A stretch of DNA of 40,175 nucleotides from Escherichia phage 536_P3: the sequence record PQ227709; one strand, written 5' to 3'. Below are positions 1,100 to 40,175 of this stretch, in pieces. Position numbers and translations under genes: made by a program. Below the pieces are notes generated by a model. That model saw nothing but the letters and a program-made list of their open reading frames with translations, was not told where the DNA came from and made no database searches. Within the stretch, counting starts at the first letter, position 1, and each line of letters opens with the position of its first letter.

Positions 1100-1558
1100 A
1101 TGATTTTCACTAAAGAGCCTGCTAACGTCTTCTATGTACTGGTGTCAGCTTTCCGTTCAAACCTTGATGATGAGGTTAACATGAGTCGCCACCGCCACAT
1201 GGTTAGCACTTTACGTGCCGCACCGGGTATTTATGGCTCCGTTGAGTCAACCGATTTGACCGGGTGCTATCGTGAGGCAATCGCAAGCGCACCGACTGAG
1301 GAAAAAACGGTTCGTGTACGCTGCAAGGACAAGGCGCAGGCACTCAATGTTGCACGCTTAGCTTGCAATGAGTGGGAGCAAGATTGCGTACTGGTATACA
1401 AATCACAGACTCACACGGCTGGTCTGGTGTACGCTAAAGGTATCGACGGGTATAAGGCTGAACGTCTGCCGGGTAGCTTCCAAGAGGTTCCTAAAGGCGC
1501 ACCGCTGCAAGGCTGCTTTACGATTGACGAGTTCGGTCGCCGCTGGCAGGTGGCCTAA
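1100..1558 (+). CDS. 0.3: S-adenosyl-L-methionine hydrolase/lyase (SAMase), anti-restriction gene 0.3 of the T3 type
   Basis: 152-aa ORF, ATG with GAGG RBS; sequence MIFTKEPANVFYVLVSAF...FGRRWQV matches my recollection of T3 SAMase; first gene after the early promoters. Confidence 0.9.
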   Translation: MIFTKEPANVFYVLVSAFRSNLDDEVNMSRHRHMVSTLRAAPGIYGSVESTDLTGCYREAIASAPTEEKTVRVRCKDKAQALNVARLACNEWEQDCVLVYKSQTHTAGLVYAKGIDGYKAERLPGSFQEVPKGAPLQGCFTIDEFGRRWQVA

Positions 1559-1559
1559 C

Positions 1560-1715
1560 ATGAATCGTTATTACATCAACGTACCGGGCTGGGGTGGGTC
1601 TCTAACCTGCTACGGATACAACGAACGGGACGCACGGAAACGTTTTAGAGAACAACACGGCTTCGGAAGGCTTCCTAATGGGACGCGCCTATGGCTGGAC
1701 GCCCGTGATTGGTAA
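1560..1715 (+). CDS. Hypothetical 51-aa early protein (gene 0.4/0.45 position)
   Basis: ATG at 1560 overlaps the 0.3 stop (TAACATG); the track ORF 1368..1715 is an upstream extension in a frame overlapping 0.3. Confidence 0.55.
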   Translation: MNRYYINVPGWGGSLTCYGYNERDARKRFREQHGFGRLPNGTRLWLDARDW

Positions 1716-1999: not shown

Positions 2000-2158
2000 A
2001 TGGTTATCTTTATCGCTGTCGCACTCTTTGCGGTCGCTGGCTGGTACTCTGAGTCACGCAAGGCCGCTCGCTATCATCGCAAGATGGTTAAACTCATGGA
2101 ACACTTGGACGCAGAAGGGCGAGGCCGCGAGGCTATCGAACTGGTGAAACACGCATGA
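2000..2158 (+). CDS. Small hydrophobic protein (gene 0.65 position), probable membrane protein
   Basis: Track ORF 1961..2158 starts at GTG; ATG at 2000 follows GGGAGGA RBS; MVIFIAVALFAVAGWY is a hydrophobic helix. Confidence 0.5.
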   Translation: MVIFIAVALFAVAGWYSESRKAARYHRKMVKLMEHLDAEGRGREAIELVKHA

Positions 2159-2523: not shown

Positions 2524-3633
2524 ATGACTTTCACCGAAGCACAAGCCACACTCGAAGCTATCCGCAACCTGCCGATTGACCGATTGGACGAACGCCAGCC
2601 CATGCTGGTGGCTCTTGCGGCTGCTATCGTGAACGCTGAGACTCAAGACGGCGAACTGACGCAGGCCAAGGGCAATTGGGGTCTGGAGTCTATGGACTAC
2701 TGGCAGACACTGGCTGAGCGTATGCGTGATGTTGGATTTGTACGCTTGGGTAACGGTCACTTTAGCGCAGCATATGAGCACGCATTGTTACCGGGCAAGG
2801 TTATCAAGGTAGGCTTTAAGAAAGAGGATTCAGGCGCTGCCTATGCTGCATTCTGCCGTATGAATCAGGGTCGTGAGGGTATCCCTACGGTGTACGACAT
2901 TCAGCGTCATACAGGCTGCTACACGGTGGTACTGGACTACCTGACGCCGCTTAACGATTGGTGCCACGGTGAAAGCGATAAGATTCGCCACCACTTCCAC
3001 GCTGCAAGGGAAATCATTGAGGAGGATTGCTTCGACACCGCCGAAGAGTACCCGATAAGCGAGGGCTTCATTGAGACCTGCAAGGATATTCGCAAGTTCT
3101 TCTTAGGCATCGCATCGTTCGATTGTCACAGCGGGAACATGATGAAAGACCAGATGGGACGCTTGATTATCACCGACCCGGTGTCATTCAGCGCAGACGA
3201 CAAGTTGAAGCCGGGTGAATTTCACTGTGACCCGGATGAACTAATCGCCGAGATTGAGGCGCTGAGGGCGCAGGAGGCTATCGAGCGCTGCAAGGCACGT
3301 AAGGCTAGGCGTGACCCTAAAGGAACCTTTCAGGTAGCGCGTAAAGCACGCATCAAGTGGCGCAGAAAGGCCGCTAAGCGCGTAAAGCACAACGCTAAGG
3401 TACTCGCTAGGATGCGCATGGACGCCAATCAGAATCGCAGGGATGAGCCTAGGGCGCGTATGGTGTGGGGTGATAAGCACTGGCGCAACGCTTGGATGCA
3501 CCACAATAACCTAAACTTTGCAGAACTGGAGCGCCGCGCTGCTGCGGCAATGATGATGCACGACGAGGTGCGCATTCAGTGGGGCAAACCGTTACACATA
3601 GACGCATACCTTGACAGGAGACTGCAAGGCTGA
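2524..3633 (+). CDS. 0.7: Serine/threonine protein kinase and host transcription shutoff protein
   Basis: 369-aa ORF between the 0.3 region and the RNAP gene; size and position match T7/T3 gp0.7. Confidence 0.85.
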   Translation: MTFTEAQATLEAIRNLPIDRLDERQPMLVALAAAIVNAETQDGELTQAKGNWGLESMDYWQTLAERMRDVGFVRLGNGHFSAAYEHALLPGKVIKVGFKKEDSGAAYAAFCRMNQGREGIPTVYDIQRHTGCYTVVLDYLTPLNDWCHGESDKIRHHFHAAREIIEEDCFDTAEEYPISEGFIETCKDIRKFFLGIASFDCHSGNMMKDQMGRLIITDPVSFSADDKLKPGEFHCDPDELIAEIEALRAQEAIERCKARKARRDPKGTFQVARKARIKWRRKAAKRVKHNAKVLARMRMDANQNRRDEPRARMVWGDKHWRNAWMHHNNLNFAELERRAAAAMMMHDEVRIQWGKPLHIDAYLDRRLQG

Positions 3634-3703: not shown

Positions 3704-6358
3704 ATGAACATCATCGAAACTATCGAAAAGAATGACTTCTCCGAAATCGAACTGGCTGCTATCCCGTTCAACACACTGGCAGACCACTACGGCAGCGCAT
3801 TGGCTCGTGAACAACTAGCTTTAGAACATGAGTCTTATGAGCTAGGCGAGCGCCGCTTCCTCAAGATGCTTGAGCGTCAAGCGAAAGCTGGTGAGATTGC
3901 AGACAACGCAGCCGCTAAGCCGTTACTCGCTACACTTCTCCCTAAGTTAACCACACGTATCGTCGAGTGGCTCGAAGAGTACGCATCGAAGAAAGGCCGC
4001 AAGCCCGTAGCCTATGCACCGCTCCAGTTACTCAAGCCGGAAGCCTCCGCGTTTATCACCCTGAAAGTTATCCTTGCGTCACTGACCAGCACGAACATGA
4101 CAACCATTCAGGCCGCTGCTGGTATGCTGGGGAAGGCCATTGAGGATGAGGCACGTTTCGGTCGCATCCGTGACCTCGAAGCGAAGCACTTCAAGAAGCA
4201 CGTTGAGGAACAACTCAACAAACGCCACGGGCAAGTCTACAAGAAAGCCTTTATGCAGGTGGTCGAGGCCGATATGATTGGTCGAGGACTGCTTGGTGGC
4301 GAGGCGTGGTCTAGCTGGGATAAAGAAACCACGATGCACGTAGGGATTCGCCTGATTGAAATGCTGATTGAATCCACGGGTCTGGTGGAATTACAGCGCC
4401 ACAACGCAGGTAACGCAGGCTCTGACCATGAGGCACTGCAACTGGCCCAAGAGTACGTGGACGTATTAGCGAAGCGTGCAGGCGCTCTAGCGGGTATCTC
4501 TCCGATGTTCCAGCCGTGTGTCGTACCGCCGAAACCTTGGGTAGCAATCACCGGGGGCGGCTATTGGGCTAACGGTCGCAGACCTTTGGCACTAGTTCGC
4601 ACTCACTCTAAGAAGGGCTTGATGCGCTACGAAGACGTTTACATGCCAGAAGTCTACAAGGCTGTGAACATCGCGCAAAACACCGCATGGAAAATCAACA
4701 AGAAAGTTCTTGCGGTTGTCAATGAGATTGTGAACTGGAAGAACTGCCCGGTCGCAGACATTCCATCTCTGGAGCGCCAAGAGTTACCGCCTAAGCCGGA
4801 CGACATTGACACCAACGAGGCAGCACTCAAGGAGTGGAAGAAAGCCGCTGCTGGTATCTATCGCTTGGACAAGGCACGAGTGTCTCGCCGTATCAGCTTA
4901 GAGTTCATGCTGGAGCAGGCCAACAAGTTTGCAAACAAGAAAGCAATCTGGTTCCCTTACAACATGGACTGGCGCGGTCGCGTGTACGCTGTGCCGATGT
5001 TCAACCCGCAAGGCAACGACATGACGAAAGGCCTGCTGACCCTCGCTAAAGGAAAGCCAATCGGTGAGGAAGGTTTCTACTGGCTGAAAATCCACGGTGC
5101 GAACTGTGCAGGTGTCGATAAGGTTCCTTTCCCTGAGCGCATCGCGTTCATTGAGAAGCACGTAGACGACATTCTGGCTTGCGCTAAAGACCCAATCAAT
5201 AACACTTGGTGGGCCGAGCAGGATTCACCTTTCTGTTTCCTAGCGTTCTGCTTCGAGTATGCAGGCGTTGCGCACCACGGTCTGAGCTACAACTGCTCTC
5301 TGCCGCTGGCGTTCGACGGGTCTTGCTCTGGTATCCAGCACTTCTCCGCGATGCTCCGCGATGAGGTAGGTGGTCGTGCGGTTAACCTGCTGCCAAGCGA
5401 AACCGTGCAGGACATTTACGGCATCGTTGCGCAGAAAGTAAACGAGATTCTCAAACAGGATGCAATCAACGGCACGCCTAACGAGATGATTACCGTGACC
5501 GACAAGGACACCGGGGAAATCTCTGAGAAGCTCAAGCTGGGAACCTCAACGCTGGCGCAACAGTGGCTGGCATACGGTGTAACCCGTAGCGTAACTAAAC
5601 GTTCGGTCATGACGCTGGCTTACGGTTCCAAGGAGTTCGGCTTTCGTCAACAGGTATTGGACGACACCATTCAACCTGCGATTGACAGCGGTAAGGGCTT
5701 GATGTTCACCCAACCTAACCAAGCGGCTGGTTATATGGCTAAGCTGATTTGGGACGCGGTGAGCGTGACCGTAGTCGCAGCGGTTGAGGCGATGAACTGG
5801 CTCAAGTCTGCCGCGAAGCTGCTGGCTGCTGAGGTCAAGGACAAGAAGACCAAGGAGATTCTGCGCCACCGTTGCGCGGTTCACTGGACTACGCCGGACG
5901 GCTTCCCGGTCTGGCAGGAATACCGTAAGCCACTCCAGAAGCGTCTCGATATGATTTTCTTAGGGCAATTCCGTCTGCAACCGACGATTAATACCCTCAA
6001 GGATTCAGGCATTGACGCACACAAGCAGGAGTCTGGCATCGCGCCTAACTTTGTTCACTCACAGGATGGTAGCCACCTCCGCATGACAGTCGTTTATGCT
6101 CACGAGAAGTATGGCATTGAGTCCTTTGCGCTCATCCATGACAGCTTTGGGACTATCCCGGTAGACGCTGGTAAGCTCTTTAAGGCTGTGCGTGAAACGA
6201 TGGTTATCACCTATGAGAACAACGATGTGCTGGCAGACTTCTATGACCAGTTTGCAGACCAGCTACACGAGACCCAACTGGACAAGATGCCTCCGCTTCC
6301 GAAGAAAGGAAACCTGAACCTGCAAGACATTCTCAAGTCTGACTTTGCCTTTGCATAA
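3704..6358 (+). CDS. 1: Single-subunit DNA-dependent RNA polymerase (T3 type)
   Basis: 884 aa; MNIIE(T)IEKNDFSEIELAAIPFNTLADHYG...DFAFA matches recalled T3 RNAP; all phage promoters here are of T3 specificity. Confidence 0.97.
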   Translation: MNIIETIEKNDFSEIELAAIPFNTLADHYGSALAREQLALEHESYELGERRFLKMLERQAKAGEIADNAAAKPLLATLLPKLTTRIVEWLEEYASKKGRKPVAYAPLQLLKPEASAFITLKVILASLTSTNMTTIQAAAGMLGKAIEDEARFGRIRDLEAKHFKKHVEEQLNKRHGQVYKKAFMQVVEADMIGRGLLGGEAWSSWDKETTMHVGIRLIEMLIESTGLVELQRHNAGNAGSDHEALQLAQEYVDVLAKRAGALAGISPMFQPCVVPPKPWVAITGGGYWANGRRPLALVRTHSKKGLMRYEDVYMPEVYKAVNIAQNTAWKINKKVLAVVNEIVNWKNCPVADIPSLERQELPPKPDDIDTNEAALKEWKKAAAGIYRLDKARVSRRISLEFMLEQANKFANKKAIWFPYNMDWRGRVYAVPMFNPQGNDMTKGLLTLAKGKPIGEEGFYWLKIHGANCAGVDKVPFPERIAFIEKHVDDILACAKDPINNTWWAEQDSPFCFLAFCFEYAGVAHHGLSYNCSLPLAFDGSCSGIQHFSAMLRDEVGGRAVNLLPSETVQDIYGIVAQKVNEILKQDAINGTPNEMITVTDKDTGEISEKLKLGTSTLAQQWLAYGVTRSVTKRSVMTLAYGSKEFGFRQQVLDDTIQPAIDSGKGLMFTQPNQAAGYMAKLIWDAVSVTVVAAVEAMNWLKSAAKLLAAEVKDKKTKEILRHRCAVHWTTPDGFPVWQEYRKPLQKRLDMIFLGQFRLQPTINTLKDSGIDAHKQESGIAPNFVHSQDGSHLRMTVVYAHEKYGIESFALIHDSFGTIPVDAGKLFKAVRETMVITYENNDVLADFYDQFADQLHETQLDKMPPLPKKGNLNLQDILKSDFAFA

Positions 6359-9708: not shown

Positions 9709-9851
9709 CGCTTCGTGAATGCTGCGATTGGTGTGCCGCTAAGTGGAACCAAGCTATTGAGGATGGTGACAAGGCGGCTGCTGACGCTTACCAACAACTG
9801 TACGCGCTGTGGGAGCGGCGCTTTAAGGAGGCTCAAAGTGGAGCAACGTGA
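9705..9851 (+). CDS. 1.8: Gene 1.8 protein
   Basis: 48-aa [19 protein letters not shown]...[21 protein letters not shown] overlap with the HNH stop, GAAGGAGA RBS; resembles recalled T7 gp1.8. Confidence 0.7.
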
Positions 9852-10002
9852 ACAGAAGTACCTTCTGACGATTGAAGGTAACACCGAGTCCTTTGAGGTT
9901 CCGGTATTCGCCCGGTCTCTCGAAGAGGCAACGCTACAGGCTGAACATTACGAGGACGCTGGCTTCATTGTGAGCCGCATCCGTCCAGAAGTGAAAGCCT
10001 AA
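9838..10002 (+). CDS. 2: Gene 2 protein (inhibitor of host RNA polymerase)
   Basis: ...[38 protein letters not shown] resembles T7 gp2 (SFEVPIYAETLDEAL...GFEVTRVRP); inferred GTG start at 9838, 6 nt after AAGGAGG. Confidence 0.7.
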
Positions 10003-39924: not shown

Positions 39925-40175
39925 TCTCATAGTGTAAGAACCTCAAGTACCCCCCATAGCCCTCTTAAAGCCACCTAAAGTCAGCCCTACCCCTAGGGTT
40001 TAACCTTCGGTTAACCTTGAGTGTAGCGATAGCTCACTACGGTATCTCTCCAAGTGGTCTATAGGATAGCCTAAAGTGTTGCCTAAAGTCAATACCTAAA
40101 GTGGTGGATGGCTTAAGGAGAGGCTTAAAGAGTGTCCTAGTGTACCAGTTCGATAGTACATCTCTATGTGTCCCT
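39925..40175. repeat. Right direct terminal repeat (copy of 1..251)
   Basis: Direct comparison with the first 251 nt of the window. Confidence 0.9.

Follow-up and report, generated by a model that had tools for sequence, protein, structure and literature searches.

A 51-residue basic protein of PHROG family 13225 encoded next to the SAM lyase gene in the early region of a T3-like phage

The early region of Escherichia phage 536_P3 carries, directly downstream of its S-adenosylmethionine lyase (SAMase) gene, a 51-codon ORF (positions 1560 to 1715 on the plus strand, TAA stop included), for which the translation, PHROG assignment, homologues, mode of selection and AlphaFold2 model together point to a basic ββαβ protein of PHROG family 13225. 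This ORF is almost certainly a genuine early accessory (class I) gene, the product of which most likely binds a host macromolecule, probably in the course of counter-defence or host takeover. In the following, the window refers to the whole stretch of DNA analysed (40,175 nt; sequence record PQ227709), which corresponds to the complete, linear genome of a T3-like phage (Teetrevirus).

Genomic context and expression of the 51-codon ORF

The region from 1090 to 2520 of the window exhibits 98.4% identity to Salmonella phage phiSG-JL2 and 98.3% identity to Citrobacter phage SH1 and Pantoea phage F1M1C, and the left end of the genome was shown to follow the canonical T3/T7 class I layout, comprising promoters A1 to A3, the R0.3 site, gene 0.3, a number of small ORFs, the gp0.7 kinase gene (2524-3633) and the RNA polymerase gene (3704-6358), the latter two being represented in the ORF list. 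Three strong sigma-70 early promoters were identified on the plus strand between positions 493 and 775 (A1, 493-522; A2, 622-651; A3, 747-775), each matching 10 of 12 consensus positions and each agreeing in position with its counterpart as annotated in T3 and phiSG-JL2. The R0.3 RNase III hairpin (plus strand; assigned on the basis of the phiSG-JL2 and T3 annotations and of membership of repeat family D2) is present in two copies, at 892-945 and at 1019-1072, of which the latter, proximal copy forms the 5′ boundary of the mRNA encompassing gene 0.3 and the small ORF. A further RNase III-type hairpin of the same repeat family, corresponding to R0.45 in the phiSG-JL2 annotation, is located at 1713-1766 on the plus strand. 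This 54 nt element is 83% identical to the R0.3 hairpins, has a predicted folding energy of -26.5 kcal/mol (z=-5.4) and starts with the stop codon of the 51-codon ORF as its first triplet.

Three additional features of the genome were recorded. The first 40 nt of the window recur at position 39925, which yields a direct terminal repeat of ~251 nt (1-251 and 39925-40175) and identifies the window as a complete linear genome. Upstream of gene 0.3, a perfect 127 nt tandem duplication (827-953 and 954-1080) doubles the R0.3 hairpin together with a weak promoter-like site; the repeated unit is present as a single copy in phiSG-JL2, F1M1C, Poynor, T3 and SH2, and the duplication could be recent or could be an assembly artefact. 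Between genes 0.45 and 0.6, a 52-residue ORF with a hydrophobic N-terminal segment (2000-2158, plus strand; PHROG 25811, E=8e-40) represents another conserved small early gene with no assigned function, being annotated in several relatives and not in phiSG-JL2.

Gene 0.3 (1100-1558, plus strand) encodes a SAMase of 152 residues, as deduced from a match to Pfam PF23780 (E=2.7e-42), its assignment to PHROG 2226 and the gp0.3 annotation in phiSG-JL2. The 51-codon ORF follows immediately, with its ATG at 1560-1562 and its TAA at 1713-1715, and its presence and deduced protein sequence were found to be exactly as given in the first-pass annotation. The same annotation had described a TAACATG overlap between the two genes, which is erroneous, as the SAMase stop codon (1556-1558) and the ATG are adjacent and are separated by a single C at position 1559. 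Reading of the upstream sequence revealed a Shine-Dalgarno (SD)-like AGGTG at 1548-1552 (plus strand), within the 3′ end of the SAMase gene and 7 nt 5′ of the ATG, and SD-like motifs of the GGAG/GAGG type were present 5-10 nt 5′ of the start in all 13 homologues checked, with a spacing as in the window. In the mechanically generated ORF list, this frame is represented by a 115-residue ORF (1368-1715) that begins at an in-frame ATG inside the SAMase gene. This extended product was rejected, as the start at 1560 is supported by the observation that all homologues start at a methionine aligned with it, each with an SD-like motif of its own.

The location of the ORF between A1-A3 and gene 1, on the same strand and bounded by RNase III sites, in synteny with T3 and phiSG-JL2, assigns it to class I. 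Host RNA polymerase would thus transcribe the ORF from A1-A3, after which RNase III cleavage at R0.3 and R0.45 would generate a dicistronic mRNA carrying the SAM lyase gene and the 51-codon ORF. The latter would be translated from its own SD sequence, starting 1 nt past the SAMase stop codon, a proximity that makes translational coupling possible.

Conservation and selection

According to the ORF list, the same 6 kb of the window contains many spurious ORFs of 40-130 residues, and the case for a real gene therefore rests on comparative evidence and not on ORF length. The profile search that had been proposed as a check in the first-pass annotation yielded a full-length match to PHROG 13225, a family with no assigned function (E=4.5e-25, 88 bits; residues 1-47 against profile positions 1-48 of 50). 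A tblastn search of 50,697 phage records identified homologues of the ORF in 96 records. Among these, ten close Teetrevirus relatives encode an identical or 98% identical protein, members of other Autographiviridae genera (Berlinvirus, Kayfunavirus, Apdecimavirus and Ningirsuvirus) exhibit 70-75% amino acid identity, Vequintavirinae myoviruses of 140-150 kb (CR3, phiTE and CB7) 50-58%, and Casjensviridae and other phages of Serratia, Pseudomonas and Rhodobacter 39-47%. An HMM search of 1.84 billion representative sequences retrieved 238 clusters (at 50% identity) with E<=1e-3, 38 of them with E<=1e-10, nearly all of which consist of stand-alone proteins of 45-80 residues. A scan of viral contigs revealed eight family loci, mostly duplicates of GenBank phages, and a pattern-limited scan of 185,579 species genomes detected no relative, a result consistent with restriction of the family to phages and with its absence from host chromosomes.

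Pairwise comparisons by the Nei-Gojobori method revealed seven synonymous and no nonsynonymous differences between the ORF and its counterparts in three close relatives. For distant pairs, synonymous sites were saturated (pS 0.6-0.9), as compared with pN values of 0.1-0.4, and omega ranged from 0.04 to 0.37 for those pairs for which it was computable. These substitution patterns indicate that the ORF is kept by purifying selection. What is conserved between these unrelated genomes is the protein sequence, which excludes an RNA or regulatory element as the explanation, and the comparative data combined make it almost certain that the 51-codon ORF is a real gene.

A protein with 100% identity is encoded by phiSG-JL2, SH1, ESh10, F1M1C/F2M1C and CT02, and the window protein is not distinguishable from other members of PHROG 13225, with which it shares its size (45-60 residues) and stand-alone architecture. 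The family is already known, being represented by PHROG 13225 and by GenBank entries listed as 'hypothetical protein', including UNA05038.1 of Pantoea phage vB_PdeP_F1M1C, ORF4 of Yersinia phage AP10 and CB7_136 of Pectobacterium phage CB7, and it is often missed by annotation. In the curated GenBank/RefSeq records of phiSG-JL2 (1510-1662) and SH1 (1381-1533), for instance, the gene encoding the identical protein is unannotated. Scans of the protein and its relatives against Pfam, NCBIfam and PADLOC assigned no family; neither the sequence motifs of the family nor its PHROG identifier occur in the literature searched, and two screens of phage accessory genes do not list the family in their supplementary tables. 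A paper on anti-Dnd activity that was considered as a lead, through JSS1_004, was found to concern the gp0.7 kinase and was set aside.

Rare fusions were observed among metagenomic proteins, with one instance of each type. P0157 (L034, 331-1197) consists of two tandem family units of ~50 residues followed by a pentapeptide-repeat domain (PF00805, E=1.6e-30), P0122 contains two copies of the ~50-residue unit, and P0181 (L035, 6001-6630; 209 residues) carries a unit at its C-terminus. These arrangements hint that the family unit may serve as a portable binding module. P0163 (915 residues) is composed of 11 tandem repeats of ~75 residues, each with IPGFGPYKFNPKEDAKQAQKRFQEVTG, which matches family profile positions 6-36 (E=4.5e-7). 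Together with two other long proteins matched in multiple stretches, P0068 (WWWW repeats) and P0136 (lectin-like repeats), it was judged to represent a repeat or low-complexity artefact or to be unexplained.

The genomic neighbourhood of family members was shown to differ between phage groups. In Teetrevirus, Berlinvirus, Kayfunavirus and Ningirsuvirus, the family member is located directly after the SAMase gene, from which it is separated by 2 nt past the stop codon in Berlinvirus, while its start overlaps the SAMase stop (ATGA) in the Kayfunavirus and Ningirsuvirus relatives; in AP10 and in the Kayfunavirus 01KA, it is located in the Ocr/0.4 block. In large or non-T7-like phages, it is surrounded by extended series of small genes with no assigned function, and no annotated gene recurs beside it. 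Only unknown families were found beside it in CR3, CB7, Smarc1, UF_RH7, 20Sep420, Kashira, RcMcDreamy and the metagenomic contigs, and none of the neighbourhoods examined outside T7-like phages contained an adjoining SAM lyase or known anti-defence gene. As the non-T7-like neighbours are all of unknown function, guilt by association can be argued only for the early region of T7-like phages, in which all genes are early whatever they do.

Predicted structure and surface charge

An AlphaFold2 model based on an alignment of 64 sequences (pLDDT 93.4, pTM 0.73) predicts, with high confidence, a single-domain ββαβ protein comprising strand β1 (residues 2-7), strand β2 (14-19), a helix (22-33) and strand β3 (43-46). 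The protein has a net charge of +4 and a pI of about 9.8, and a basic character was observed throughout the 64 aligned members, with net charges of +2 to +8 (median +5), a median pI of 9.99 and a pI above 9 in all but one of them (63/64). Conserved columns include P9-G10, G34 and P39-x-G41-T42, which are structural in nature, as well as A25-R26, R30 and R37. Basic residues occupy the columns of R26, R30 and R37 in 81-98% of members, and residues 23, 27 and 28 are mostly basic, which, by helix periodicity, would place a conserved strip of positive charge along the exposed side of the helix. This basic face, together with the loop that follows the helix, is the probable contact surface of the protein, and its conservation suggests that the partner is an acidic protein surface or a nucleic acid.

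The latter option is embodied in a reading according to which the product is a small RNA- or DNA-binding protein and not an inhibitor of a protein partner; it might, for example, modulate the processing, stability or translation of early mRNA, or coat or compete for DNA. The high pI across the family, the clustering of conserved arginines along one side of the helix and in the loop after it, and the position of the gene, which ends exactly at an RNase III hairpin, are consistent with such a function, and the basic charge fits nucleic-acid binding equally well as protein inhibition. Conversely, no recognised nucleic-acid-binding motif and no Pfam or NCBIfam match was found, the fold similarity is generic, and homologues in other phages are not located beside RNase III sites, the link to such sites being specific to T7-like phages. 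A role in nucleic-acid binding is consequently viewed as rather unlikely.

Structural comparison using Foldseek identified AcrIE2, T7 Gp2 and the ribosomal protein eL20/LX as the nearest solved folds, all with weak scores and none with sequence homology; the family profile, when run against the sequences of the entire PDB, returned no match at E<=10. In the BFVD database, significant matches were confined to the family itself, and weaker ones included Xylella phage proteins and an 'RNA polymerase inhibitor' (E=0.065). As regards AcrIE2 (PDB 7chq/7kix), the similarity to the 51-residue model is limited (E=2.5, probability 0.38), the solved protein is larger (87 residues) and has extra elements, the profile search against PDB sequences detected no homology, and the analysis revealed no link between PHROG 13225 and CRISPR-Cas.

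The top PDB match of the model was Gp2 in complex with the RNA polymerase (RNAP) holoenzyme (4lk0_M; E=0.43, probability 0.87, TM 0.64), which raises the option that the 51-residue protein is remotely related to T7 Gp2, with its charge inverted, and inhibits or modulates host RNAP by docking on it. The ββαβ fold of Gp2 is shared by the predicted model, the BFVD match named above is of the same kind, and an hhalign comparison with an alignment of Gp2 proteins (PF16857), assembled from the gp2 of the window itself and its relatives, brought β1, β2 and the helix into register and aligned the invariant alanine of the helix. This comparison, however, attained a probability of 3.3% (pairwise E=0.013), so that homology to Gp2 is not demonstrable. 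No match to PF16857 was obtained at E<=1, and the family profile found no PDB sequence at the threshold given above. The arginines of the RxRP motif in β3 of Gp2 are needed for binding to the β′ jaw of RNAP. This R-x-R-P motif is invariant in the Gp2 alignment and absent from the PHROG 13225 family, and the Gp2 family is acidic (median net charge -5, pI 4.6), as opposed to the basic PHROG 13225 family (median +5, pI 10). Furthermore, gp2 is a middle (class II) gene, unlike the class I gene described here, and the phage already possesses a bona fide gp2. Action as a Gp2-like RNAP effector is accordingly judged improbable. The gp2 gene of this genome (PF16857) is located within an ORF at 9715-10002 on the plus strand; its relatives have been called as proteins of 54 or of 77-95 residues, with annotated starts that are inconsistent across databases.

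Relationship to T7 gp0.4 and variation at the insertion site

The first-pass annotation had placed the ORF at the gene 0.4 position and noted that its product does not resemble gp0.4, the FtsZ inhibitor of T7. As it had stated, T7 gp0.4 has 51 residues; it is encoded directly after gene 0.3 (T7 1278-1433). The dissimilarity was borne out, as BLASTP produced no alignment between the two proteins even at E<=100. Clear homology to gp0.4, which would have spoken against the annotation, was looked for and not found, and gp0.4 homology was rejected; true gp0.4 homologues are detected in the same type of comparison at E=1e-32 (AP10) and E=2e-5 (01KA). The two genes are alike in length, in their position directly after gene 0.3, in class I expression and in lying 5′ of an RNase III site. 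Apart from the lack of sequence similarity, they differ in fold (a modelled helix-turn-helix for gp0.4 versus the predicted ββαβ arrangement) and in net charge (about -2 by sequence count versus +4).

The suggestion that the ORF replaces gene 0.4 was not upheld. In T3, Klebsiella phage Patroon and Citrobacter phage SH2, the site is empty, whereas two phages carry both genes. Yersinia phage AP10 encodes Ocr, a gp0.4 protein 88% identical to that of T7 (E=1e-32) and, as a separate ORF, the family member ORF4, the latter two at 1123-1275 and 1698-1847, respectively. In Kayfunavirus 01KA, a gp0.4-like ORF (E=2e-5; 1843-2004) is located directly 5′ of the family member (2001-2150). Use of the slot after gene 0.3 is thus not mutually exclusive, as AP10 and 01KA have both genes, and T3, Patroon and SH2 have neither; in addition, family members occur in phages that have no T7-like early region at all. 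From the coexistence of both genes in AP10 and 01KA, and the absence of both elsewhere, it follows that gp0.4 and PHROG 13225 are independent accessory genes that are able to coexist. The early regions of AP10 and 01KA are mosaics of interchangeable small-gene cassettes.

These findings also bear on the proposal that the protein is a convergent analogue of gp0.4, i.e. a different small protein in the gp0.4 slot that blocks cell division through FtsZ or another divisome protein. Its length of 51 residues, its position after gene 0.3 and its early expression match those of gp0.4, T3-type phages have been reported to lack gp0.4 (PMC13423816), and one of 13 members gave a noise-level match to an NCBIfam Icd-like division-inhibitor model (E=0.033). 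The latter match is not significant after multiple testing, however, and the presence of both genes in AP10 and 01KA argues against redundancy, while most T3-like phages have neither gene and the fold and charge are unrelated to those of gp0.4. A gp0.4-like block of cell division is consequently considered very improbable. The more general suggestion of the first-pass annotation, that of a host-takeover protein with a target other than that of gp0.4, is a reasonable hypothesis.

A MAFFT alignment of the junction in the window, phiSG-JL2, Patroon, SH2 and T3 delineated a presence/absence cassette of 164 nt (1549-1712, plus strand), in place of which T3, Patroon and SH2 have 7 nt (agtacaa/agtacag). 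In these three phages, which do not carry the ORF, the SAMase gene ends with ...CGCTGGCAAGTACA(A/G)TAA and the RNase III hairpin follows directly, and the TAA after the cassette serves as the SAMase stop codon at empty sites and as the stop codon of the 51-codon ORF in the window. A near-identical cassette was found in 12 of the 162 phage records that match the surrounding region, these 12 representing ten phages plus RefSeq duplicates, and a diverged allele is present at the same site in Klebsiella phage GP-5. In view of the empty sites in T3, Patroon and SH2, the ORF represents an insertion/deletion cassette in the T3 lineage and not an exchange for gp0.4. Horizontal transfer has spread the family, in the form of a single-gene cassette, through phage families that are unrelated to each other.

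That the ORF is spurious, whether as non-coding spacer, as a piece of the RNase III/regulatory region or as an extension of the SAMase gene read in the wrong frame, as might be argued from its omission from the phiSG-JL2 and SH1 records and from the frequency of chance ORFs of such length in the window, is extremely improbable and is already contradicted by the data at hand, namely the conservation of the protein between unrelated families of phages in the face of synonymous saturation, the HMM family matches (PHROG 13225 and 238 clusters), the confident fold prediction, the conserved SD-like motif and the fact that the hairpin works without the ORF sequence in empty-site phages.

Proposed role and implications

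The preferred reading is that the 51-codon ORF represents an accessory class I gene of T3-like Teetrevirus phages, and that its product is, on balance, an early host-interaction protein. As 51 residues are too few for an enzyme, the protein most likely acts in a non-enzymatic, stoichiometric manner by binding a host macromolecule, presumably through the basic helix face and adjoining loop, in common with the other small proteins of classes I and II in the T7 group. A function in counter-defence or takeover is suggested by the patchy presence of the gene among near-identical phages, its horizontal spread, its apparent absence from bacterial chromosomes in the pattern-limited scan and, in T7-like phages, the adjoining anti-restriction gene; counter-defence as the specific role of this protein is, taken alone, less likely than not. 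T7-like early regions have already yielded small inhibitors of key host machinery and of defence systems, among them Ocr, SAM lyase, gp0.4, gp0.6, gp0.7 and Gp2, and the gene described here is an uncharacterised member of this well-known kind of small early accessory proteins.

The family is compact, has a confidently predicted fold, is under clear purifying selection and spreads horizontally across very different phage families, all of which is typical of genes with a useful accessory function. The gene constitutes a reasonable candidate for functional screening, even though it represents one more conserved hypothetical small phage protein and presents nothing contrary to expectation. Citrobacter phages SH1, which carries the gene, and SH2, which does not, provide a natural pair on the same host, making its function directly testable.

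A more far-reaching and rather doubtful idea holds that the family forms a class, so far unrecognised, of mobile, charge-inverted effectors with a Gp2 fold, basic mini-proteins that many unrelated phages direct, at a very early stage, at a single conserved host target that is acidic or a nucleic acid. If this were true, candidate targets would include a defence sensor of wide distribution, a factor acting on the nucleoid or in RNA processing, and an RNAP site not described before, and T7-like phages would use a two-gene counter-defence module composed of a family member and either SAM lyase or Ocr. Such a target would add a node of phage-host interaction that is conserved from phages of Enterobacterales to those of Pseudomonas and Rhodobacter.
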